Made by a program: the position numbers and the translations under genes
In this document: positions 19,659 through 36,692 of the stretch, in pieces
Layout: each line of letters opens with the position of its first letter
How positions within the stretch are numbered: position 1 is the first letter of the stretch
Origin: Vermamoeba vermiformis
Lineage: Eukaryota
Assembly: GCA_045837725.1 (NCBI GenBank)
Contig: JBEWZL010000260.1
Location: forward strand, 682,001-720,738
Length of the DNA: 38,738 bases
Direction of reading: 5' to 3'
The notes under the pieces: model-generated
Told to the model about the DNA's origin: nothing
Database searches by the model: none
The model's input: the letters and a program-made list of their open reading frames with translations, nothing else

Positions 19659-21203
19659 ACGAATAACAGAATTATTTCTTATGTTCTACCCCTATTTGCT
19701 GTCGCAGTCATGCGCAGATGACTTATACCGGTGTAAACTTGTTGGTGGCGAGTTTGTAACTGTTTGCACGAGGTGCTTTCAATTTTAGTTTATTCTAACA
19801 CTTTTGTTATCAGGCCAAGTTCCCGGTCAACTCGGTACGACGTACCAATATCCCACCAACGAGATGTGATACTTCACGGCAAGGGCAGAACACCATTCGC
19901 TTGCCATTAGATGGGAACGTATGAAAAGTAGCTGCCTTCACTTGTGATTAGACGCTCGAGCACGTGCACTAACTTAGATGCAATTGAACGGACAGACAAC
20001 AAGAGTGGAGCCACATTCAGAACCTCGTGATAATACTAACACTAAGGGCGCTTACGCCATTTGGATCCAAAAGTATTGCCAACTCGTACATTATTTGCAG
20101 CGAATGTTAACACTTTGCATTAGCCAAGGACAATACAACGGTGCTCAAATCGGTTCTGATGCAGTTCGTAAGTTCATAATATCGATCATTAATCTTCGTG
20201 CCACCTAACACGTGCTTATTAGCTGCTGCCGCTTTTGCTGATTTCTGGGCCAAACTCGCAGCCATGTACAAGAACAATCAAAAAGTGATCTTTGGCTTGA
20301 TGAACGATCCCAATTCTATAGATTCCGCTGTTTGGAAAGGCATTTGCAACACGGTCATTGCCGCCATCCGTCAAACTGGCGCTCAAAACTTGATTCTCGT
20401 GCCTCCTGTTGAGTGGAGCAGAGTTCAACAATGGAGTACTAACCCCGGCACTCCTCAATCTGTTGGCATGCTAGGTATTGTCGATTCCGCTAACAACTTT
20501 GCCTACGAAGTACATCAATTCTTGAACCCCGAAGGCAGTGGTTTGACCGACGATTGTGTCGGCCCTGATATCGGTCAACAGTTCTTGACTGAGTTCACTA
20601 CCTGGTGCCGTCAACACGGCTTCAAGGCTGTTCTCACTGAGATGGGTATCGCTAACAACGACGGCTGCCGCACTGCCTTCAGCAACCTCCTCGACTGGCT
20701 CGATGCCAACAAAGACGTCTGGGCTGGTTGGACTTACTGGTCTGCTGGTCCCATGTGGGGTGGCTGGAGCTACTCTCTTCAACCTGCTGACGGCGTGGAC
20801 AAGCCTCAACTCGCGCTCATGACTACTCATCTTGCCCCCGCTCCTACTCCCACTGTCGTCGCTCCAGTGACTCAAGTATGTCATAACTTTATTGTTGATT
20901 AGCGCTTGGTATTGACTATTGATTTAGACTCCTCAAGCCACTACTCCTCAAACTACCACTCCTCAATCTACCACTCCCGAATCGACCACTACCCCTCAGT
21001 CCACTACTACTCCTCAATCGACTACCGAGCCTCAGACTCAAGCTCCTACTAGCGTCGAGACTCCTGTCGTTGTCACCACGCCCTCTGTGGTCGTTACTCC
21101 CACGCGCAACAACAACAATAACAACGTGTCTGCCTCTGACAGCGTTCACAGCAAAATTTTGGTGGGGCTTTTGTCGGCTCTTAGCTTCATCATTCTGATG
21201 TAA
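19659..21203 (+). pseudogene. GH5 endoglucanase (cellulase) gene with Thr/Pro/Ser linker and C-terminal membrane/GPI-type anchor; 5' exons frameshifted and acid/base Glu replaced by Asp
   Basis: Fragments TYTGVNL.GGEF, YQYPT, NTIRLP.RWER and KGAYAI.DP lie in shifting frames. Large intact exon has VIFGLMNDP, NFAYEVHQFL, LTEMG, WAGWTYWSAGPMW, then TTPQS repeats and a hydrophobic tail. GH5 identity is strong; pseudogene versus assembly error is unresolved. Confidence 0.75.
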
Positions 21204-23084: not shown

Positions 23085-25031
23085 ATGTAAGTTCGAACTA
23101 ACTTTCAACTGCGATGTTCTAACTCGGTTTTAGGGCGAAGAAAACAATTAATATGGGACAGCTCATCGCTGTCAATGGTCTAGGAGGTCTAATATTCGGC
23201 TATAACACAGGTACTCCGCCCGTACAGTTTTTAATCATTTTCTTAATTTATCAACAAAAATATTTGCTAGCAATGATTAATATAAATTCAATCTAGGTGT
23301 TATTGCCCTCGCATTATCGTATATTGCCGAGGAGTTCAACTTGTCGTCTATTCTGCAAGGAGTTCTTACGGCGAGTATTCTCGTTGGTGCGTTGATTGGA
23401 TCCGCTACGTCAGGTAAATTTCAACCCAAGCGAAATTGATACTATTATTCCGCATATATACTTCATGTTTACTTAATTACTTTTGACTTATGCGCTTAAT
23501 TAGGCATCATTTGCGATAAAATCGGTCGAAAGAAGACGATCCTCATGCTGAGCATCATCACAATCGGCGGAGCAATCTTTTCCATGTTCTCGCCATTGTA
23601 TGCCGTGCTCTGTGTTGCACGCGCAATCCTTGGATATGGTATGTGTCTCTCTTATCGGCAAAGTCCTCAATTTGGATCTGTTGCGTGATTTTTCGAGTTT
23701 TCTGAAGTCTAATCGCAATTATTTAATGAAATTATAGCTGTCGGCGCAGCATCAGTCGCGTGTCCAATGTACGTGTCGGAGATGGCAAAGGTTAAGCACC
23801 GCGGAAGATTGGGAATTGTATTTCAGATCGCGGTCACGCTCGGAATTTTCCTCGGTTATATTGTTCAATACGGCCTCAATCGCGGCAACATTCAAGGAGG
23901 TATGACAACGAGAATATTGTGGTGTTTTCGATAAATTTCTGACTTTGCAAAGATTGGTACTGGAACTGGCGAGCTGGATTTGGCATTGGAGCGGTGTTTG
24001 GCGTGGGCTGCCTGATCTTGTCGTTCCTCATTCCCGAGTCCGAGCATTGGCTCGAAGCTGTGCGCGTGGCCCGTGAAAATAACACGAAACACTCGTCGGG
24101 CTGGGGCACTTTCTTCAAGCCTCGCTACGGCAAGTTCGTGGGTCTCGGCTTTATGTTGGCTATCAGCTTGCAGTTGACTGGTGCGTAGATTCAGCACACG
24201 GTCAGCGTGCCTAGTTGCGGACTAACAGTTCCTTGTAGGTGTGAATGCCATTATGTACTACGCACCCAAGATTTTGACGGGCGCTGGCTTCAACATTGAG
24301 GACGTATTAACTTTGGTGCGTGCAATGAGTGCCTTCGTTATTGTTACTCATTTCTCACGTTACTATTCAATAGATCGTTGGTGCGTGGAACTTTGTCGTC
24401 ACATTCTTCCCTCTGCTGCTCGTTGACCGCGCAGGTCGCAAGCCACTGATGATCGCTGGTCTCTCCATCATGTGCGGCAGTTTGATTCTCGTTGCAGCAT
24501 CGTTCTTTGCCAAGGTAAGTCTTTCTATTATCTTACTAGTTTCGTGTATTCATACCATTCAGGATCCGTTTGCGAACGGCATTATCGCAATCGTGGGCAT
24601 CGGTGTCTTCTTGTTTGGCTTCGAAACAGGTCCAGGGTACGTCTGATATCTATTTCATGCTCAATTCGTGTGGCTAATCATGCGACAGAACTAATTTCTG
24701 GGTGCTCGTCAACGAAGTTTTCCCCAACGAAGTGCGTGCCGGTGCGAACAGTTTCATCAATATGTTGCAGTGGCTCTTGAACGTCGCGTTGGCTCTTGCA
24801 TTCCCGCCACTTGTGGATGCTATCGGAGTCTCAAACACTTTTTGGATCTTTGCAGGTATTGGAGTGCTGTGCTTGATCTACATTGTAATTTCAGTGAATG
24901 AAAGCAAGGGCAGTGAGCTCGGTAAGACAGATGTTGGTGGCTTGCACAAGAAGGATGGCAAGGCAGTGCACGCTGATATTGAAAATCCTGAGGTCAAAGC
25001 TGTTGATACTCCTGCACCTCAAGCTGCATAA
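23085..25031 (+). CDS. MFS sugar porter family transporter, multi-exon
   Basis: GGLIFGYNTGVI, DKIGRK, PMYVSEMA..HRGRLG..FQ, WRAGFG, IPESE, QLTGVNAIMYYAPKIL, VDRAGRKPL, NEVFPNEVRA, ESKG. Confidence 0.95.
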
Positions 25032-25099: not shown

Positions 25100-27650
25100 A
25101 GTTGACAGGGAATCTCCCTCACTGCCTTTTATTTATAGCTCAACAAGTAAGTTAGGCTACGCCCTGCGGTTAACCAACCAGTGCCACCAAAAACAAGCTT
25201 CCACAAGTGCCCTGTGGTAGTGATATTACATCTGTATAAATTTGCCACACATTTTTGTATGGCAGTTTCCAATTATTAAACAAAGAACCTGTTTTCTAGT
25301 TTCAAACATTGTTAGCTAGCTAAAGATATATATTTGGGTAACTACAATACCATTTTACTAGAATGACATGGACAATGTGTTTGGCATTATGGCATTGAGT
25401 AAAGAATGTCTGGCAACTTTGAGGCAAGTTCTTAAAGACAATGAATGTTGTTGCAGTATCTACACAAAGAACCTTGAATTATCCACATTCACCAATGATG
25501 TCCAGTCACTGCCTCCTTTGGACGATAACTTTAACTGTCAAGAACAGTGTCATAGGTGGAAGAATTTTTTCAAGTTGCTTCAGGTTATGCTTGGTTTTAT
25601 TGGTAGAGTGATCTAACCAAAGTAGAACAATCCAATGTGACCGTGTAAATGAAAAGCAGTCTACCAGCTTATTTGCGCTTGTGAAACTAAGTCTTATACC
25701 TATAGGTTGATTTTAGAGGGTATTCAAGTGTGCTGTATTTTATTTAAGGATTTGGTCTCTTGGTTTGATTGGTGATAATCGTGCGTTCAACAAAAGTTAG
25801 CTTGTTAGAACGAGCGACCAGTACGGAAATACATCTTGATGGTTATACCATCGATCAGAAACAAGATACCTAGGAAATTTGTGTTTATTCTCACATCCAT
25901 CAAAGCATCAAACTCTCTCTATGACAATGTGGAGTTTCCAGAGGGTGATTATGGTGCTTGTCCACAATTCCCAGAGTGGCCTTAGACAACAATGGCCCAA
26001 CTACAATTTATCAGCTGCCCAAAACTAAGCAAGTGAATCCCCCACCAGCTCCAGATCCAGCAGAGCAACCAGCAGCAAAGAAGGCAAAGGAGAATTGACA
26101 ATTGTTTTTTTATATAAAAATGTAGTTTAGGCCTCATTTCTGTTGTGCAATACAAATGCACAGTGGTGATTCCACTGGATTTCGCAGGAGAGTTTAAACG
26201 AGCTCCTCAAAGAAATTGGCTGTGCCGAGTGCCAATACGACGTACCTTTCTTCTCCCAATGCATCTCTGCGGAATCACCGATAGTGCGAGTCCCAGTCGA
26301 GCCAATCCAAGGTAAATCCAAACGTTGTTCGCCTAATAGTTTCTTACGGTTAACAATAGGAACTGCGACTGTCCCCGAGCAGAACAAACACCTGGAAATC
26401 GATTTCATCCCTGGCTGTAACGGAGTTGGCTACGAGTGCTTTCATCTTCCCTCCTTCTTAGCACGACATCCTGTGCACAACAAAAATAAGAGAAGTGGAG
26501 AAAACCTGCCGCAGCCCGATACTAAGCGGCGACGAACCGAGAAAGCAACTACAGAAGTTGGCGGCGATGGCTCAAGCGCAGACAACTAATCCAGTCATTC
26601 TGCGATCAAGATCGATTTGTTCACCTTACCAGCATCGCCGATTCAAAGTCCAGGATTTTTTAATGACGAAATACCGGTATGTATTCCACACTGGCTTTGA
26701 CCTTGGCTGACCATTCTTCAACAGACTTCCCCGAGCAATCCTGCTTCACCCATCCAACTCACTTCGCCGATCCAACTCACAGACACGATTGCTACCGTCA
26801 CAAACCCTGCTAAACCACCGCTTCCCCACGCAATACAGCTCAAAGGTAAGGCTTAGTTCATTACTGAACCTACTAACACCAAGTTCAGTCACCCCGCGAG
26901 TCCAATTTTCGTTAGTGCACGGCCTTTGCTTAGTAGGCAAACCTCTCCTATTTCAGGATGCTCAAGGCGATCGATTTTGTCGTTTACAAGCTGAGGATTG
27001 TATTATTAGTCTCTCCGAGCTTGGTACAATCAACCTTGTCAACCAACTTGCTTGCCGAGAATTCTCCTTTGTCCGCGTGAAGTTTTCCCCGACGGGCTTG
27101 TCCATGACTAAACATGCTGTGCAGTTGTAAGTACTATATTCAAATATTTAATGATAATAACTAATAGTTACCACTAGCATTCAACGTTTACGGGTTCTTT
27201 GCTTCGAGGACGTGGATCCGGAACTCGTTGCAAAGCTATGTCCTGTACTTTACCCTTCTCTTCGCGCTTTGACGATCAAGGGCATAGTACAGCCACTGGC
27301 AGTCTATGCATTTCCCTCCTTCAAGTGGCATAACTTGCGATTTCTTCATTTGGCAAGCGACACATGGGTACTGCCACTTTTCCAAGCAATGGGCGCGTCA
27401 GTTGCCGAAGTTCTCAATATGCTCTTTGTCTTGGCTCCAAACCTGATGGGTTTGCGGTTGCCAATTCCAAAAGAGGACGATACGAAAACGTCTTGGGAGA
27501 TTTGTCTGACGGGTGTCAACTTCCCGCCTGAATTTCTCCTTTTGGAACTCGAATCACACTGCCCCGGAGTCTACATCGACTTACGCGACCTCGATCAACT
27601 ACCTTTGCGGCATCTATGCCTGGTCAACATTATAGTATTTATTAGGTTAC
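25100..27650 (+). pseudogene. Decayed multi-exon gene(s) of unknown function ending in an LRR-like region; truncated next to repeat array A
   Basis: Spliceable exons with in-frame TGA (26167) and TAA (26587) interrupting otherwise open frames; NLS-like KRRRTEK; LRR-like WHNLRFLHL, APNLMGLRL, LPLRHLCL; 5' part strongly CpG-depleted. Confidence 0.5.
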
Positions 27651-27700
27651 TACAGTTTAGGGTTTCGCGTTCTGAAGGGCAAATAACACCCTAGCACTGC

Positions 27701-28135
27701 AGAACAGGGGTGTAGTCCTTGAAACTACGCCCTTGCAAACCAGAATGGGGGTGTAGTCCTCGAAACTACGCCCTTGCAAACCAGAACGGGGGTGTAGTCC
27801 TCGAAACTACGCCCTTGTGAACTAGAATGGGGGTGTAGTCCTCGAAACTACGCCCTTGCAAACCAGAACGGGGGTGTAGTCCTCAAAACTACGCCCTTGT
27901 GAACTAGAACAGGGGCGTAGTCCTCGAAACTACGCCCTTGCAAACCAGAACAAGGGTGTAGTCCTCGAAACTACGCCCTTGTGAACTAGAATGGGGGTGT
28001 AGTCCTCAAAACTACGCCCTTGTGACCTTGAATGGGGCGTAGTCCTCGAAACTACACCCTCACAAGCCAGAACAGGGGTGTAGTCCTTGAAACTACACCC
28101 TTACAAGCTAGAACAAGGGTGTAGCCTTCAAACTC
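27701..28135. repeat. Tandem array A: 11 x 41-bp palindromic units
   Basis: Units start at 27701, 27742, 27783, 27824, 27865, 27906, 27947, 27988, 28029, 28069, 28110; stem GGG(T/C)GTAGT / ACTACGCCC, loop CCTCGAA. Confidence 0.97.
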
Positions 28136-28159
28136 AGGGACATAACTATCTGCGTCTTA

Positions 28160-29250
28160 TTTATTTACTGTGCACAACTGGTTGCGCGACCAGCTGGACA
28201 CAGGCAAGGAAGTGACAGGGCACAGAGTGCAACGAGAGAGTGCCCAAGCCAGTCACAGAGGCAGAGAGCATGAGTGCCAGCAAGGAACAGCAAACAAAGT
28301 GATGTGTGGTGAGAGCTCATGACACGGTGTGCAATCAGGCTTGACGAGCAGCTTGCTGCAGTGTGCACAGTGGTGCATGCAGTGTCATCAGCATGCAGTG
28401 CGCTGTCACTGCTTAACTGTCACTGCTTAACTGTCACGTGTGATGCGCAGTGCGGCAGTGAATGTGAACAGCGTGCTCGACCAGCTCGATGAACTTGCAC
28501 TGCTCGGCCAATGGGTGCGCTGGGCAATGCTACCGGCGTGAGGTTAGTGCTGGAACTAGTATGCGTACACATCATTCGACGCACCTGCTATGCTTTCACG
28601 GGCCTTGGCTGGCGATGCCGGTGTCGAGTAATTCTTGATATCTGTTGTGGAAGTACACTTGGCCTTGGTGCTGTGGCTCTTGGCCTATGCGCGCCGTGTG
28701 CGTATAGTGGCATCAAAGCGATTCTAGGTTGTGTATCGGGCTTGACGTGTCATAAAACGTTGCACGCATCGGGTCAGATTCGTGATCGAGGTAAAATCTA
28801 CTTGACTTACCTCTTGCAGGTTGCTTGTAGCTATCTGGCGGTCATGCTGAAGCTTGCAGAACGTGTGGTGCTTATATGGAGGCTAGCTACACTATACAAA
28901 CGATAAAAATTAGATGCCTCGCATCTGAAAATTATGATTTAAAATTTTTTCCCTTACCTCATGCCGCACTTGTTGGCTAGCACCTTAAAAGCATGACCCT
29001 TTGAATTAATTATGTCGTAGGTGCAGTCCCTACGCAGCAGTGAGCTCGAAGAACAACTGCGTGTGATCAGCAGTGACAGATCGGCCGAAAAACCTTTCCT
29101 AAAAATTAATTTAAATTCTCCCCTGAGTTATTAATTAAGCAACTCACCTCAGCGTACTAAGCACTGTACGAGCACGTATTGGGCCACCAGACAGTCAATC
29201 TCGGCACAACCGAAATATTACTTGCCGCGTGAAACGCGTATGTTGCGTTC
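28160..29250 (-). ncRNA. Putative spliced non-coding transcript (minus-strand module 1)
   Basis: Minus-strand donors near 29147, 28958 and 28809 with matching YAG acceptors; AATAAA at ~28160; no spliced ORF found; exon structure shared with module 2. Confidence 0.4.
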
Positions 29251-29352
29251 AATAAATAAAAAAACAACTACATAAAATTAATTACACAACCATTGTGGTG
29301 ATCGTGTTAGTAGGTATTTTTAAGCTAACGGTTTAGCGTGCAAATTTGTCAG

Positions 29353-29420
29353 CGTGCCAGGATTTATCCCAGCACAAACAATTTTTGGCAGCACGTGCTG
29401 TTCGACACACGTCGGTTTTC
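29353..29420. promoter_or_regulatory. Conserved 68-bp core, copy 1 (putative bidirectional promoter or origin)
   Basis: 65/68 identical to 31380-31447; contains GTGC.AGGAT/ATCC.AGCAC dyad and CACGTG; lies between divergent splice-signal arrays. Confidence 0.5.
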
Positions 29421-29717
29421 GCGGTCGACACGCGTCGGTTTTCATTCTGTTGACTAAATAAGGAAGTGACCGTTGCATTAAACTTCGACAGATCAACCAC
29501 AAGGGTCGATTTATTTATTTATTGTTATTACAGCATATACAGTAACGCGCCACGGCATCAGAGAAGAGAAATGATGATAGAAAGAGTGAAATTTCATTGT
29601 GAATCTGATGGAGAATGAGTGAAAATGATTGAATTTGATTGAAATTGCAATGAAATTACAGTCAAATTGCATTGAATTAGCATCGAATTACAATAGAATG
29701 ATGTTGTAGTCTAGTCA

Positions 29718-29870
29718 CTCTTCGAGCGCCACAGAGGTATGAGAATAGCAAACGAAATCTCATTGGAAGTAATGCACTCTTTGAGCGCCACAGAGGTATC
29801 GATTTCGATCTTTTAAATCAAAAATACAGTAATGTAGGCTATATCACTTGAGGCGCCACAGAGGTATTGA
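29718..29870. repeat. Three dispersed copies of GCGCCACAGAGGTAT
   Basis: Three copies ~60-70 bp apart, preceded by a degenerate GAATT/TGAAA low-complexity tract (29580-29700). Confidence 0.85.
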
Positions 29871-29984
29871 TAGTCAAATTCATATATACTGTAGGGCCTG
29901 GCCATATAGGGCTAGCCCTGAAAAACCATGATATGTTGGAAAACTTCAAAATAAAAACAACACACTAGTAAAACTTGGCAAATT

Positions 29985-31265
29985 TTTTATTTACAAATTA
30001 CTCATACAAAAATGAGCTGAGGCAGAGGCAGATGTGGCTGGTGTGGGCATCCCAAGGCTTGTCTGCACCAGGTCAAGGGCCATGAAACGTGGCTGATAGA
30101 CATGCACCAATAATTACCTAAACAATTAGCTGTTTAGTTAAAAGTTGTTCAAAACAGCTAAGTCCTCATACATCGTCTCCATGTGGAGACGACCTCCAAA
30201 AAAACAAAGTCGTAGGAGGTCGTCTCCCTAAGGAGACGATGTATGAAAATAATAAAGTCCGGCAGAGGTCGTCTCCCTATGGAGACGATGTCGGAAAAAA
30301 CTAAGTCCTAAACTAACTTACCTTTGGCCAGTTGTGGTATGCCTCAATGCACCGAAGGTTGTACAACGGCACCACAGAGCGAAAGGTACCAGCTGAACGA
30401 GCAGGACTTGGGAAATTCGTCAAGCCCTAAACAAACAAGAGTTCAGTCAGATGCCGCGCCGAAAATTAATTTAAAAAATTTAATGCGAGTCCTAGGAGGT
30501 CGTCTCCTCCACAAAGACAATCTACGAAAAAAACGAAGTCCTAGGGGGTCGTCTCCATCGCGGAGACGATCTATGAAAAAAAATTTAGTCCAAGGAGGTC
30601 GTCTCCATCACGGAGACGATCTATGAAAAAAACTAAGTCCTAAAGGGTCGTCTCCATCGTGGAGACGATGCCTGAAATATCTAAGTCCAAACAAACTTAC
30701 CCTAGGCCATAATGGTTACTGAGTTGTATTGCACCGTGGCAGACCATAGAGCGAAAGGAAACAGCTGAACGCAGCAGTTTAGCCAAATGTAGTTGAGTTT
30801 AAGTAAATTGCTTGCTTACCGTAATATCCACGTGTGAGAATTAATTGCCAAGCTTGGCAAACTTGCAGGACTTAGGAGATTTGTTAATCAGATGCGAAAA
30901 AATTAATTCGAACAGCTTACCTAGCGCTGGAGGCTTAGTCACGGAGGGCAGCAATACACTAAAGTGTGTAATAACGCGCTGTGTAGTTCATGAGCGTCAG
31001 CTCCCTACACGAATGGTGAATGTTAGATGCCGCGCATCTGAAATACGGATTTAAATTTTTTTTGCTTACCGAATGCTCTGTACTGCAAGCGAAAGTATGA
31101 CCGATCAGCTGTAAAACTAAAATTAAAAATTAATTCTGCCTGAATTATTCTTCAGGTTATGGAAACTCACCTCCGAATACGCACTGTACGAGTACATAAT
31201 GGGCAGCAGACAGCCGATCGGCACACCGGGTAACCTTGGCACACGAAAGCAGTTGCGTTGCGGGC
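29985..31265 (-). ncRNA. Putative spliced non-coding transcript (minus-strand module 2), paralog of module 1, with hairpin array B in its introns
   Basis: Minus-strand donors near 31170, 31068, 30920, 30820, 30700, 30321; duplicated exon 30322-30393 / 30701-30765; no spliced ORF found. Confidence 0.4.
30160..30690. repeat. Tandem array B: 7 palindromic units of ~47-49 bp in two blocks (3 + 4)
   Basis: AAGTC.N4-5.AGGTCGTCTCC-N4/5-GGAGACGAT.N.A-run; blocks at 30160-30310 and 30487-30690. Confidence 0.95.
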
Positions 31266-31379
31266 AACAACTCAATAAACAAGAAGATAAAAATAAATAA
31301 AACTAATTATGACCATTGTGGTTGTCTTGGTGTTCATGAGAATTAATGAAAATGATTTCGTGTGTTGAAATTGTTTCGC

Positions 31380-31447
31380 CGTGCCAGGATTTATCCCAGC
31401 ACAAACATTTTTTGGCGGCACGTGCTGTTCGACGCACGTCGGTTTTC
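31380..31447. promoter_or_regulatory. Conserved 68-bp core, copy 2 (putative bidirectional promoter or origin)
   Basis: 65/68 identical to 29353-29420 inside a more diverged ~430-bp duplication (29141-29562 / 31164-31587); followed by GGAAGTGACCGTTGCA in both copies. Confidence 0.5.
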
Positions 31448-31499
31448 ACTGTCGAAGTCGGTTTTCGGCAGTAATGACTAAATACGGAAGTGACCGTTG

Positions 31500-34400
31500 C
31501 AATTTACGGAAAAAGCTTTGACAGATCGACCACAAGGGTCGAGTTATTATTTATTACAGCTGAAAGCAACGTGCCGCGGCATCAGAGCCGTTCCAGCGCG
31601 AGTTATTTGGATCGAGAGCTGATGCGAAAACGGTCGAGCCGTGTTATTTCGTTAGCAATTTGTCCGCTATCAGATGACTCGTTGGCCGCATCGAAATAAT
31701 TAGTAAGCTATTTTATTTTAATAAAAATAACGAATATGATGCAATGAACGCGGCTTTTTGAAATTTAAATTCAACATAAAAAAAATTAATTTATATTCGG
31801 ATCGAGCTTTCCACTCGAACCAAAGTTAAATAATTATTTACATTATCGTTTATATATTTATTAATCGTAATTTTGCAGGTTTTTATGAAGAAGGCACGGA
31901 CCCAGACCGGCTGAGCCGATCGAAAACTCGATCCGTGACATGCCAAAGTTTTCTTGACCGGTAAGTGCATTTGGATAGTTAAATATCTAATATTCGACAA
32001 TCTAACTTTATTTATTTAGGCCTTGAGTGAACACGAGAACGGATCTAGATCGCGATCTTCACGCGATAAAAAATTTACATCTAAGGGTAAGTTAGAAATA
32101 TTAATGGTATAAATCGATAGTATTATAGTAGTACTAACGTTTTATCGACCTTGCGAGCGTCAACAATTTCCATTTAAAGAATAAGACATCGATGGTAAGT
32201 TTATAATAATAATCACAAAGCCAAGTACTAACGAGTTGTATTAGTAGGAATGCTCCCACGAACGTTCGAGCCTGATGAAGTTGATCAAGAAGTACGGGCT
32301 CGATCCGATAAATTTTGCTTGACGCGACCACGAACGCTTAAGAGTAAGTAAATTGCATTATAAAACGTATTTAACAATTATTTTAATATCTGTTTATTGT
32401 TTAGTTGGCCTGATTACGCGTTAATATTGACTAATGGATTCACGAATTAGCGAAGAATATCAGCGCGGTGGTCAATAGGTAAGTTAATTTACGCTTTAAG
32501 TATTATATATAATCAATAATTAACTCTTTGATATTGCTAGAGTTGATGCGTGATTGCTTTCATCGCAGATGCGGGATCTCAGACCGCTAATAATCTCACA
32601 GGTAAGTCTCATTATTGTATATTATGAATACTAACGTTATTTTACTACTAATTAGAAATGTGTGAAGGGTTATTTACGAGAACAGACGCTAAGATCGAGC
32701 ACCACAGCTCAAGATAAATTTTCACGTAGCACATTGATCGCGCTACAAGTAAGTTAAATAATTGTTATATTATTATATTAAAGTACTAATATCGTTTATT
32801 ATACAGAGCAATTGGTTGATTCCAATTTGCGTGGATTCGGGAACGCGATCTGGTGCCCGAATTTCAGACATTGATAGTGCTAAAAGTAAGTAGAACGTGT
32901 TTAAATAACATATCATACTTATTGATATTGTTTTTATTTCAGGTAAGAGCACGTTGGCTATTTTTACGATCGTTGAAGGCGCGATCTGACGCGAGCATTA
33001 TTTTTGATTCATGTCAAATTACGGACCCGTAAGTAGCATAAACCAATCAATCGTATATGCTAATATAATATTTTAAATCAGAGTCGCTGAATTCGGTGAC
33101 ATTACGTAGAAAGCGGATCCGCAACTTAACCGGATTCGTGACACGAAAACAAAGTTGGAAGCGTTAAGGTAAGTTTATTTAGGCTATTAGTCATTTTAAT
33201 ACTTTTACTAACTCTTCTATGAGTATTTTCAAGGAGGAATTTGTTTATCCTCAGGGCCCGCGTTAATCCCTTATAGTCAGCGCGATTAATTGCTTGATAA
33301 GGTAATTGCTTCCTCTAAATATTATTGTTGTTTTATTTACTCATACGTACTATGGTCAGGTCGTTTCACGGTATACTGGCTCTTTCCGTTCGTGTCCCAC
33401 TGGGTCGGTAACTTGATGGCGAGTTCGGATGCGTTGGACGCATCAGAATAGTTGGTAAGGTCAATTGTAATAATAATTACAATCAATAAGACGCAGGGAA
33501 TGCGTCAATTTAAAATTTGAAATTACACGTACGGATCGAGCTTCGTGCTCGTATAAAATTGAAATTGTTATTCATTTGTTATTATAACAATATGTTAATC
33601 CTTCTTTTATTTGTTCAGAACTAACGCGCGAGCTCTAAATCAAGCGTGAATCAATTTATATATCATATTCATGGCCGGTAGCGAATCAAGCGTAAGTAGA
33701 TTAAATCTTGTATTTTATTGTTATTTAATATTCTAACATGGTTTATTTAGGATTTGGAATTTCACGATGATGGATCTTGAACGCGATCTTCTCGCGTTAA
33801 CAGATCAATTACATCGACAGTAATTGACCGGTAAGTATTCCCAGCACTAGATATCGAGCAACACTAACGTTTTGTTTAATCAGAAATGGGCAGTGCAAGC
33901 ACTCAGTAAAATTAACAAGATCGAGATCAGGTTACATCTCGATCCTTGAAAATTTATATGGCGTGCATCTATTACTCTGAAGGTGAGTAATGCCCTTGTT
34001 TATTTATACTTTAACTCATTGATACTAATTAGATGTCTTGGGAAATGACATGGAGCTGGGGCCGGAGATCGGGTAGCGACATCCCGATCTCTCAGAAGTT
34101 CAGTGACGCATCGATCGCGTCAAAAGTAAGTAAAATGCTTTAAAATTAAATATAAAAGCCAATATTAATGATTATTCTTATTTAGGATTTATTCGGCTGA
34201 GATCATCGGATCGATCACTCGATTGCTTTTGAATTAATGCTGCGCATCAATTGCACCGAAAGTAAGTCCAAAGCGCACATTTATAAAATATGATATTAAT
34301 ATCTTTATTATAGTTTGATAGCACGAGACTTAGCAGAAGCAGTGCACGGGATCTGACCAGTGCCTGCTTAATTTTCACGGTAGACGAAGATTCAATTACA

Positions 34401-35870
34401 CGTAAGTAATAGATGGCGATTAAATTATATATTGACTAATAGAATATTACAATAGATTGGCTAAAAGAAGCGGCGAAGAAGTGGCGAAGAAATTTGATCC
34501 GCAACTTCAGCGGATTTGCAACCGGAAACTTAGCCCGTGGTAATTGGTACGTGATTTTACGTTTAATTTTATATTCACAATCAATTCATTAATGTTATTA
34601 GAGAATGGATCCCAGAGCGGCTGTACTCGGATCTTGGCTGTTTTAGAACACAATTCATACGAGCCACGTTTTAAATTAAAAAATTGTAATTAGGTCTTAG
34701 GACCAAGCAATAAAAATTGTCAATTCACTTGTACATGTATTAAGGCAGTTAATAAAATTAATAAACGAGCTCCCGCTAAAGATCTGATGCTGTTATTTTT
34801 AGCTTGGACAGATCGACCACAAGGGTCGAATATTTATTAAAATTGTTGATTAACAGCTGACAGTGACGCGCCACGGTCGCCACGGCCGTTCAGCGCGAGT
34901 TATTTCGAGGATAGACGCGTGCGAATCTTGGATTCTCAACAGATCGACCACAAGGGTCGGTTTGTTCATTTGGATAATTTTTATTGAATCATTAGGTAAC
35001 GCGCCAAACGACTTTCAGCGTCGTTGCAGCGCGACATTCAAAGCAAGATCTAAAGTGTTGCGAATCTCGGTGCAGAGAACGAGATAATTAAAGGTAATAA
35101 ATTTTAAAATACCCTTCCACCATCTATAAAATTATTCTACGCTTAATTGAATTTAAATTAAATTTATAGTTTTAATGAAATCTTGCGAGATTCGGATCGA
35201 GCTTAGTGCTCGTGTTTTATCCGAATCTCAAGTAAAATAGTATTAAATCACATTAATTACACAATATTAACGTTTATTTTTTATTATAGACTCCACGTAG
35301 AAATTTTTAGCGCGATCGCGAAAGTCCTACTCACTTTCTGTTCGCGAGATCCCGACCACCAATGGTTGTATTATTGTCTTCTGGTGCCCTCCATTCGTGT
35401 CCCGCTGCAGGGACGATCACCATTGCTCGCCGACGGGGTCGGTAACTTGATGGCGAGATCGAATCCGCCCAGACCGTGGAAATAATTCGGTAAGTTTTTA
35501 AAGATATTCAATGGTGATAGAATAATCGTACCAATGCGTCGATTATTCATTTAAAAATCAACTTAAATTTATAAATTTTGTTAAATTCGTATCGAGCTTC
35601 CCGCTCGTGCAAAGTTTAAATCATTGGTTATTCTCTTATCAATACAATATGATAATTGTTATTTTATAGGTTATTTCGGTGTCGTCTGCACGCATCCGTA
35701 CGGATCGTTCGCGAAGTCGAACCCTCAATCCCCACTAACTCTTCAAGCGTAAGTAGTTTAAATTTATTATATTATTCTATTCAATATTCTAATGCTATTT
35801 ATTTTGGCGTTAAAAGTTACACGGGACGGATCTCGAACGCGATCTTCATGCGTTATCAGATCCATTACAT
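31500..35870 (+). ncRNA. Putative multi-exon structured lncRNA locus (>20 short hairpin-forming exons)
   Basis: More than 20 GTAAGT-type donors, mostly ~110-150 bp apart, mostly followed by a 50-65 nt AT-rich intron with CTAAC/TTAAT-like branch site and YAG; exons GC-richer and self-complementary; some exons have stops in all 3 frames. Confidence 0.55.
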
Positions 35871-35964
35871 TTTATATATACTTGGGGTTGACGGATGTTT
35901 GGGTTATGGAAAAAATACTAAGTCGAACGGCCAATGCATGAAATATCCTCTGGACAACACCAGA

Positions 35965-36648
35965 GGCGTTACGTTCAAGGCAACAACATGGGAGGTCGTT
36001 ACCTTCAAGGCGACAACGTCCAAAGTTGGGTAGGTCGTTACCTTCAAGGCGACAACGTCCAAAGTCAGGTAGGTCGTTACCTTCAAGGCGATGACGTCCA
36101 AAGTCAGGGAGGTCGTTACCTTCAAGGCGACAACATGAGAGGTCGTTACCTTTAAGGCGACAACATGGGAGGTCGTTACCTTCAAGGTGACAACATCCAA
36201 AGTTGGTTAGGTTGTTACCCTCAAGGCGACGACGTCCAAAGTCAGGTAGGTCGTTACCTTCAAGGCAACAACGTCCAAAGTCAGGGAGGTCGTTACCTTC
36301 AAGGCGACAACGTTGGGGGTTGTTACCTTCAAGGCGACAACGTCCAAAGTCAGGTAGGTCGTTACCTTCAAGGCGACGACATCCAAAGTCAGGGAGGTCG
36401 TTACCTTCAAGGCGACGACGTCCAAAGTCAGGTAGGTCGTTACCTTCAAGGCGACAACGTCCAAAGTCAGGGAGGTCGTTACCTTCAAGGCGATGACGTC
36501 CAAAGTCAGGGAGGTCGTTACCTTCAAGGCGACGACGTCCAAAGTCAGGTAGGTCGTTACCTTCAAGGCGACAACGTCCAAAGTCAGGGAGGTCGTTACC
36601 TTCAAGGCGACGATGTCCGAAGTTAGGTAGGTTGTTACCTTCAAGGCA
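35965..36648. repeat. Tandem array C: ~18-19 palindromic units of 39 bp (a few 30-bp variants)
   Basis: GGTCGTTACCTTCAAGGCGAC(A/G)ACGTCCAAAGTCAGG(T/G)A; stem GTCGTTACC / GGCGACGAC, loop TTCAA. Confidence 0.97.
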
Positions 36649-36692
36649 TTGCCTTTGTTTTTAATACATCAGTGCAATAATTGAGTGAAGAG

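Follow-up and report, generated by a model that had tools for sequence, protein, structure and literature searches.

An intron-rich array of stem-loop exons in Vermamoeba vermiformis as a candidate member of a non-coding RNA gene family

Splice architecture and coding capacity of the array

We analyzed a 38,738-nt window of Vermamoeba vermiformis DNA, concentrating on positions 31500-35870 of its + strand (position 1 being the first letter of the window), where short exons and introns follow one another in a dense array. An earlier note, made from the sequence alone, had interpreted this array as a candidate spliced, multi-hairpin non-coding RNA. The same window contains several genes with introns, encoding a GH5 cellulase, an F-box/LRR protein, an ankyrin protein, a short-chain dehydrogenase, and a sugar transporter.

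All 21 donor positions that the note had named on the + strand proved to be GT sites. Seventeen of them read GTAAGT, and the others were GTAATT (33302), GTAAGG (33455), GTGAGT (33983), and GTACGT (34547). We added two further donors, at 31703 (GTAAGC) and 35094 (GTAATA). GTAAGT occurs 32 times on the + strand of the whole window, and 17 of these occurrences fall inside 31961-35749 (3.8 kb), where about 1.2 per strand were expected (12.5 per strand per window). A motif count found no GTAAGT on the - strand within the array, and a minus-strand gene running across it was rejected on this ground.

Our gene model comprises 22 introns on the + strand between 31703 and 35816. Sixteen of their donors are GTAAGT, with one each of GTAAGC, GTAATT, GTAAGG, GTGAGT, GTACGT, and GTAATA, while the acceptors are TAG (13), CAG (7), or AAG (2). 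Most introns contain a CTAAC/CTAAT-like branch site. Seventeen measure 50-68 nt and five 161-196 nt, and the GC content of the short introns is 22.7%, in agreement with the earlier description of mostly short, AT-rich introns with a branch site. The exons have a GC content of 46.6% and are 61-99 nt long, with one exception of 200 nt, and donor-to-donor spacing is regular (~123-153 bp). The 161-nt intron 32087-32247 includes the 17th GTAAGT, at 32195, and may therefore conceal a micro-exon or the remains of an exon. One intron of the GH5 cellulase gene (20168-20222; 55 nt, GTAAGT..CTAAC..TAG) has the same form as the array introns, suggesting that the latter are ordinary for the Vermamoeba vermiformis genome. 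As in a spliceosomal multi-exon gene, oriented donor, branch-like, and acceptor signals thus occur together at a genome-typical intron length. This gene-like splice architecture is far above chance and matches the introns of the GH5 coding gene in style.

In line with the earlier note, the exons did not combine into a reading frame. For the first unit, joining the exons gave a 1796-nt model with 38, 29, and 30 stops in its three frames, a frequency close to random, and with no stretch open for more than 88 codons. Exons 32405-32478 and 33751-33830 had stops in each frame, and the open frames of exons 31879-31960 (offset 2) and 32020-32086 (offset 0) were out of phase, both as previously reported. 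No remnant open reading frame (ORF) was found in any exon when the frames of the exons and of the spliced model were inspected, and three copies of a recurring exon ('Z', described below) had no open frame in common. The earlier note had spoken of destroyed reading frames, which implies a coding ancestor; we found no trace of one. Neither a long ORF nor the ORF remnants of a recent pseudogene are therefore present, and the missing ORF trace together with the retained donors ruled out a recent pseudogene.

The array might nevertheless encode protein through an unusual choice of exons, small ORFs, or a variant genetic code. Its exon-intron structure does resemble that of coding genes, and some exons, several in number, retain one open frame. 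Against this stand the 29-38 stops per frame of the full model, the closure of nine of the 18 internal exons in all three frames, and exon lengths that fit no consistent phase class. Moreover, the standard code leaves the remaining genes of the window open, which makes a code with reassigned stops unlikely. We consider a coding function scarcely credible.

Stem-loops and the GATC motif

Folding energies of the exons were compared with those of dinucleotide shuffles and local controls. Twenty exons gave a mean z score of -1.0 (median -1.12, with 11/20 below -1), compared with -0.02 for 15 short introns and +0.29 for 35 coding 80-nt pieces from the long frames of the window (Mann-Whitney p = 1.4e-5). 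The exons thus folded better than shuffles, introns, and coding pieces, as would be expected of a structured RNA, although without strand preference. The best perfect stem per exon averaged 5.8 bp, a value reached by none of 200 dinucleotide shuffles (4.75 +/- 0.22), and a perfect Watson-Crick stem of at least 6 bp was present in 9/20 exons where 3.7 were expected. Most exon stems are 4-7 bp long. The spliced RNA folded with a z score of -3.85 (25 shuffles); pairs formed within single exons account for 310 of the 560. The excess of exon self-complementarity is therefore genuine but moderate.

The hairpins named in the earlier note were all found at their sites, and exon 32405-32478 indeed folds over its whole length as one long imperfect hairpin. 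The more general statement that most exons fold on themselves survived in part: 11/20 exons have z scores below -1, but only nine contain a perfect stem of at least 6 bp. Near end-to-end folding was restricted to about three exons (32405, 33884, and 34033).

The exons also share a motif that the earlier note had overlooked. GATC occurs 43 times in exons, compared with 13.2 expected from the rest of the window (3.3-fold); its density per kb is 17.3 in exons, 5.5 in the background, and 2.1 in introns. Exons are also 12-fold enriched in CGCGAT. GATC is present in 20/24 exons, usually near the exon middle and in the stem or at the loop edge of a local hairpin, and it lies within 11/20 of the best hairpins. 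The GATC motif is thus a common feature of the exons.

Numerous hairpins in a single transcript would be expected if the array were a spliced non-coding precursor that releases small RNAs from its exon hairpins, in the manner of microRNA-like or small interfering RNA clusters. Exons 32405, 33884, and 34033 form exon-spanning hairpins of ~20-35 bp, and adjoining hairpin repeats at 30156-30288 gave sub-threshold matches of microRNA type in Rfam (best 38.6 bits, against a gathering score of 76). However, the prevailing 4-7 bp stems are too short for Dicer-type processing. Comparison with Rfam, which the earlier note had envisaged, matched no family in the array, including in a permissive scan of 28900-36000, and a transfer RNA scan found none. 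Polycistronic microRNA or microRNA-like clusters carry several hairpins per primary transcript, usually in introns or in one exon and with stems of at least 20 bp, whereas the array has one short stem per exon and spliceosomal introns in between. A small-RNA precursor is accordingly very unlikely. Two other RNA classes were tried and rejected: small nucleolar RNAs (snoRNAs) in the exons, for which no consistent box motifs were seen by eye, and hammerhead-type ribozymes, which had no Rfam match despite one CTGATGA.

Repeated modules and layout of the locus

Only four groups of exons are significantly similar: 31514/34801, 32020/33751/35817 ('Z'), 33082/34456, and 33360/35290 ('S'). By this comparison, the array is not a simple tandem repeat of one unit. 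A longer order of modules recurs three times (31760-32095, 33495-33840, and 35550-35870) at 73-78% identity: a long intron bearing a conserved hairpin comes first, then an exon, a short intron, and a Z exon. Weaker collinear matches extend beyond this order. Among intron interiors, 7/136 pairs exceeded the 99th percentile of a shuffled null. Alignment to one another is no longer possible for most exons and intron interiors, indicating that the introns are not recent copies. Introner-like elements are introns that have spread as repeats in some fungi and algae. The array resembles them in having many near-consensus short introns close together in a repeat-rich setting, but its introns are mutually unlike, and the recognizable repeats are the exons and the long-intron hairpins.

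We then examined which positions had been kept between the alignable internal paralogs, which are 64-78% identical in global alignments. Donor hexamers were identical at 49/54 positions, compared with 463/698 positions of intron interiors (Fisher p = 1e-4). This retention of donor sites between old paralogs suggests that splicing is under selection. Acceptor identity was 13/27, a figure that is unreliable because indels shift the alignments. A ~9% divergent version of the array, described below, provided two anecdotal observations: one acceptor has changed from CAG to TAG, still a functional form, and the hairpin at 33919-33944 carries two changes in its loop and none at its 18 stem positions.

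The copy number of the modules was estimated from a DNA run. Contigs identical to the array had depths of 410-570, compared with 256-381 for adjoining sequence. Summed depth reached 15-19 thousand for the exon-1 module (31593-31608), ~9 thousand for S, ~6 thousand for Z, and ~5.6 thousand around 34106. Relative to the depth of unique contigs (~300-570), these values suggest ~10-60 genomic copies of each module, so the array probably belongs to a dispersed family. The run also contained alternative joins between modules and a variant lacking 32410-32649, exactly two exon-intron units. A second version of the array, ~9% divergent and of similar depth (noted at 33827-33933), could be an allele, the product of a second nucleus type, or a recent duplicate. 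The repetition of modules, both within the locus and in the genome, had been overlooked in the earlier note, as had the start of the array at a conserved promoter-like block that it shares with a divergent minus-strand unit. Repeat-induced point mutation was rejected, as the exons retain CpG and CGCG.

These copies raise the main rival to a functional RNA gene, namely a decaying, functionless dispersed repeat (a pseudogene family or gene fragments borne by a mobile element) in which the introns are relics and the inverted repeats a by-product of GATC/CGCG-rich palindromes. Multi-copy modules, variable joins, and the variant without 32410-32649 would all fit such a repeat, as would a Z copy that has lost both acceptor and donor (copy 3), a 161-nt intron resembling two introns around a dead exon, and the strand-symmetric folding and blank RNA runs reported below. 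The donors tell against it, as they are far better kept than the adjoining intron sequence between paralogs only 64-78% identical, and 16/22 retain the full consensus though most units can no longer be aligned. No exon holds a remnant ORF. No transposase or reverse-transcriptase domain was found in 10 frames of at least 90 aa, part of the frames in 20.9-29 and 35.9-37.9 kb. Furthermore, a retroelement would copy itself in intron-free form, and a non-autonomous DNA element would have no reason to preserve splice sites. We regard the decaying repeat as unlikely, though ahead of the small-RNA, DNA-level, and coding explanations, which are lesser rivals.

Upstream of the array lies a promoter-like module (31164-31513, without assigned strand), which would be common to the array and a divergent minus-strand unit. 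The stretch 31164-31587 is 71% identical to 29141-29563, and the two share a near-identical 68-nt block (~31382-31449; CACGTG/CACGTC cores) with only three differing positions. On the minus strand beyond each copy are short exons with GTGAGT, GTAAGC, or GTAAGT donors, and the 68-nt block may thus be a bidirectional promoter. The two modules were also considered as a long terminal repeat pair, which was rejected as they are only 71% identical. The minus-strand unit (29950-31170) consists of short exons and introns running leftward from the shared module, with donors at 31170 (GTGAGT), 31069, 30920, and 30819 (GTAAGC), and 30700 and 30321 (GTAAGT), and contains no long ORF; a paralogous first exon with its donor is found at 29147. 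Tandem 49-nt units at 30173-30307 (2.8 copies) and 30488-30690 (~4 copies), each with a GTCGTCTCC...GGAGACGA hairpin, appear to be intronic in this unit. Downstream of the 29141-29563 paralog, AT-rich short repeats (29560-29900) take the place of the exon array.

The array itself, with all features on the + strand, begins with exon 1 (31514-31702), whose start is placed by homology with 34801 and which carries the hairpin TCGACC-ACAAG-GGTCGA at 31526-31542. Its intron (31703-31878; 176 nt, GTAAGC..CAG) contains at 31802-31818 the first copy (GGATCGAGCTT..CTCG type) of an intronic hairpin (GGATCGAGCTT...GCTCG) that occurs four times in the array, always within long introns. Exon 2 (31879-31960; 82 nt, z -1.51) has the hairpin GATCGA-AAAC-TCGATC at 31918-31933 and is followed by intron 31961-32019 (59 nt, GTAAGT..TAG). 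Exon 3 (32020-32086, 67 nt) is Z copy 1, with ATCGCG-ATCTTCA-CGCGAT at 32049-32067. Beyond the 161-nt intron with its second GTAAGT, exon 4 (32248-32343; 96 nt, z -0.74) may alternatively use an acceptor at 32244, and intron 32344-32404 (61 nt) leads to exon 5 (32405-32478; 74 nt, z -1.64), the whole-exon hairpin with stops in three frames. After intron 32479-32540 (62 nt), exon 6 (32541-32601; 61 nt, z -0.25) contains GCGG-GATCTCAGA-CCGC. Intron 32602-32655 (54 nt) separates it from exon 7 (32656-32748; 93 nt, z -1.34), the 3' end of which is paralogous to the 3' end of exon 34033.

Intron 32749-32806 (58 nt) precedes exon 8 (32807-32885; 79 nt, z -1.06), whose hairpin at 32833-32864 bears GCGATCT in its loop. 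Exon 9 (32943-33028; 86 nt, z -0.01), between introns 32886-32942 (57 nt) and 33029-33081 (53 nt), contains GATCG..CGATC and CGCG-ATCTGA-CGCG. Exon 10 (33082-33168; 87 nt, z -1.68), a paralog of exon 34456, forms a hairpin at 33113-33139 and is followed by intron 33169-33233 (65 nt), which ends in an AAG acceptor. Exon 11 (33234-33301; 68 nt, z -0.72) is without GATC. Past intron 33302-33359 (58 nt, GTAATT) lies exon 12 (33360-33454; 95 nt, z -1.30), which carries the S element GGTCGGTAACTTGATGGCGAG and the hairpin GATGCGT-TGG-ACGCATC (33428-33444) and is a paralog of exon 35290. The long intron 33455-33618 (164 nt, GTAAGG) holds the second intronic hairpin, CGAGC-TTCGT-GCTCG, at 33537-33551. 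Exon 13 (33619-33691, 73 nt) also lacks GATC and has a z score of +1.33.

Intron 33692-33750 (59 nt) is followed by exon 14 (33751-33830; 80 nt, z -1.64), Z copy 2, which is closed in all frames; its hairpin AACGCGA-TCTTC-TCGCGTT (33780-33798) is nested in GATCT..AGATC, and a second hairpin lies at 33805-33827. Exon 15 (33884-33982; 99 nt, z -2.93), after intron 33831-33883 (53 nt), folds end to end and contains the hairpin GATCGAGAT-CAGGTTAC-ATCTCGATC at 33919-33944. Intron 33983-34032 (50 nt, GTGAGT) leads to exon 16 (34033-34125; 93 nt, z -2.16), with a 10-bp hairpin at 34064-34092 and a second one, TGACGC-ATCGATC-GCGTCA, at 34104-34122. Three GATC sites are found in exon 17 (34186-34261; 76 nt, z -0.48), which is bounded by introns 34126-34185 (60 nt) and 34262-34313 (52 nt). 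Exon 18 (34314-34401; 88 nt, z -1.19) pairs AAGCAG.GCAC with GTGC.CTGCTT around a GGGATCTGACCA loop, and exon 19 (34456-34546; 91 nt, z -0.23), beyond intron 34402-34455 (54 nt), has the hairpin GATCCGC-AACTTCA-GCGGATT at 34496-34516. Intron 34547-34601 (55 nt, GTACGT) precedes what would be the last exon of the first unit (34602-34720), with AATAAA at 34709 and two more at 34750-34765; its end is tentative.

No donor was found between 34602 and 35094, and the transcript may alternatively continue from the 34602 exon to 35093. A second copy of the exon-1 module (34801-35093) is 77% identical to 31514-31611 and has hairpin cores at 34813-34829 and 34938-34966 (12 bp). As no promoter-like block lies upstream of it, the part past 34720 may be either a separate unit or a continuation of the first. 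Intron 35094-35289 (196 nt, GTAATA..TAG) contains the third intronic hairpin (35187-35229), in which an 11-bp outer stem, GAGATTCGGAT/ATCCGAATCTC, surrounds CGAGC-TTAGT-GCTCG (35198-35212). The 200-nt exon 35290-35489 (z -1.62) includes an S element at 35433-35463 and four GATC sites. Intron 35490-35669 (180 nt) holds the fourth intronic hairpin at 35593-35607, and after exon 35670-35748 (79 nt, z -0.07) comes intron 35749-35816 (68 nt), where the ancestral TTTAG acceptor has become TTTTG and the next AG is at 35815-35816. Z copy 3 (35817-35870), with the hairpin AACGCG-ATCTTCA-TGCGTT at 35836-35854, has no donor after it, and the array stops at a minisatellite.

This minisatellite (35993-36647) has a 39-nt unit in 17.5 copies, with 30-nt variants, and its unit resembles the S element. 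A minus-strand frame across it (35872-36657) has 261 open codons and no methionine; its match to Pfam PCF11_RFEG_rpt (47.2 bits, cut-off 43) may be repeat-driven. To the left of the array, Pfam matched none of the long frames at 26170-28906, which lie in repeated DNA, and 27655-27985 is a highly repeated element, with a summed DNA contig depth of ~17 thousand compared with ~300-500 for unique sequence. The GH5 cellulase gene (19700-20902) has short GTAAGT..CTAAC..YAG introns, and a protein atlas match of a GH5 fragment was to cellulase from mixed taxa. The C-terminal part of the sugar transporter is at 24678-25028. Homologs of the F-box/LRR protein comprise one NCBI protein at 95% identity and relatives at no more than 35%.

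Expression and possible function of the array

We tentatively assign the locus, with a probability of roughly 45%, to a dispersed family of genes that would be transcribed by RNA polymerase II and whose product would be a spliced non-coding RNA with many stem-loops, acting as a multivalent platform; the locus would represent a single member or a fusion of two. Transcription would start at the conserved promoter-like block (~31380-31500), which also faces the divergent minus-strand multi-exon unit, and would yield a primary transcript with ~19-22 ordinary short introns. Their removal would join the 61-99-nt, GC-richer exons into a ~1.8-kb RNA without a reading frame. Most exons would then provide one short stem-loop at or beside GATC (GAUC), and the mature RNA would present a succession of about 20 related stem-loops. 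The likeliest role of such an RNA might be to serve a stem-loop-binding protein as a sponge or scaffold, or to associate with itself via the palindromic GAUC; kissing-loop dimerisation via palindromic loops offers a comparison. We infer that this copy is transcribed and spliced, that its hairpins act at the RNA rather than the DNA level, and that the RNA serves as a platform. The multi-hairpin RNA proposed in the earlier note gains partial support from the splice signals, the missing ORF, the folding, and the kept donors, but no RNA reads fell wholly on the locus.

Expression is the first of several points that weigh against this interpretation. Three RNA sequencing (RNA-seq) runs bearing the same species label as the DNA, with ~13 million records each, were compared with positions 26000-35925. 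No read from the three runs lay wholly on this stretch, which held no gene of known expression, so the blank fits equally a locus that is silent, a different strain, or a gene active only under certain conditions. Likewise, no exon-exon joints were seen in these reads on the same stretch, which offered no positive-control gene. The reads that could be placed (19, 17, and 23) were all partial and covered conserved cores at 29481-29520, 31520-31551, and 33774-33812 and a site near 35450. Their flanks agreed with one another and differed from the window, indicating that paralogous modules elsewhere are transcribed at a low level, a result that counts in favor of the interpretation.

The structural evidence has its own weaknesses. 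No perfect stem of 6 bp is present in 11 of the 20 exons, the folding of exon 33619 is poorer than that of its shuffles, and Rfam at gathering scores gave no match in the whole window. Exon identity between paralogs (617/959, 0.64) was no higher than that of intron interiors (0.66); as chance identity, taken from unrelated pairs, is 0.40 for exons and 0.52 for introns, exons are somewhat better kept than introns relative to chance, though not strikingly. A compensatory flip was seen in the Z hairpin, which reads AACGCG/CGCGTT in two copies and ATCGCG/CGCGAT in the third. This covariation concerns one pair among three sequences, and an expressed Z paralog has an A.A mismatch at the flipped pair (33797 T>A, with 33781 unchanged). 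Metagenome pattern scans did not find relatives beyond the window for a proper covariation test: the 20-nt hairpin core had no match, and five loci with a 19-nt word of the promoter block were dismissed as chance, with only 19-20 nt matching and a GC content of 25-63%.

The folding is also strand-symmetric. The antisense exons had a mean z score of -0.97, the paired difference in energy between the strands gave p = 0.79, and the flanks of GATC were symmetric (AGATC 14, GATCT 13). The strand is therefore set by the splice signals alone, and retained pairing, which the earlier note had taken to point to selection on an RNA, is no such pointer on its own. The hairpins could accordingly be inverted repeats at the DNA level, either GATC-centred palindromic protein-binding sites or a ~140-bp chromatin-phasing repeat on which the splice-like signals are incidental. 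The regular donor spacing and the sharp alternation of GC content between blocks would suit this explanation. It leaves unexplained, however, both the 22 sets of donor, branch, and acceptor signals oriented on one strand in genome-typical intron form and the preferential conservation of donor hexamers, and we judge it highly improbable.

The nearest documented functional analogy to the proposed platform RNA appears to be the long non-coding RNA FIRRE. The local RRD repeat of FIRRE makes up 7/13 exons in human and 11/23 in mouse; it binds hnRNPU and directs the RNA to the nucleus (PMC4820808). The likeness would lie in a non-coding RNA of many exons, a large number of them copies of one repeat unit that binds protein at the RNA level, as in FIRRE (PMC4820808). 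The array has no sequence relation to FIRRE, its exons have in common a short GATC stem-loop theme and no long repeat, its introns are minimal (50-68 nt), and its modules are dispersed in tens of copies, whereas the FIRRE repeat is local to one locus.

The platform RNA may also be set beside known genes of similar build. Non-coding snoRNA host genes such as GAS5 and the SNHG genes are transcribed by RNA polymerase II into multi-exon RNAs whose short exons are riddled with stops and whose splice sites are well preserved; the conserved product of these genes is intronic. In the array, by contrast, 17/22 introns are too short and too AT-rich (23% GC) for an intronic product. A conserved hairpin is confined to the long introns, where C/D or H/ACA boxes were not consistent by eye, and the hairpins conserved in four long introns had no Rfam match. 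With most of its introns minimal, the array is no host gene of the usual kind. A narrow full-text literature search found no description of an RNA with one hairpin per exon.

A bolder version of the platform reading, which we consider doubtful, is that dozens of RNA polymerase II genes have as their sole product a heavily spliced RNA with ~20 exons, each bearing one GAUC stem-loop. Selection would then maintain the stem-loops and the many minimal introns alike. Repeated splicing may itself matter in this case, through loading of exon-junction complexes, retention or routing of the RNA, or engagement of the spliceosome, and the GAUC loops or stems might bind one dedicated protein repeatedly or pair RNAs into assemblies.

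Were the array transcribed and spliced, it would stand out as an unusually clear example of a non-coding gene with ~20 consensus introns and a stem-loop theme under selection, and it would offer a direct route to the question of why non-coding RNAs retain introns. The multi-copy family would then provide natural replicates for covariation tests. Should the locus instead be silent, it would exemplify splice signals that outlast a reading frame in a repeat family. A transcribed and spliced array might also point to a new RNA-protein or RNA-RNA assembly system, in a lineage that has been under-sampled.

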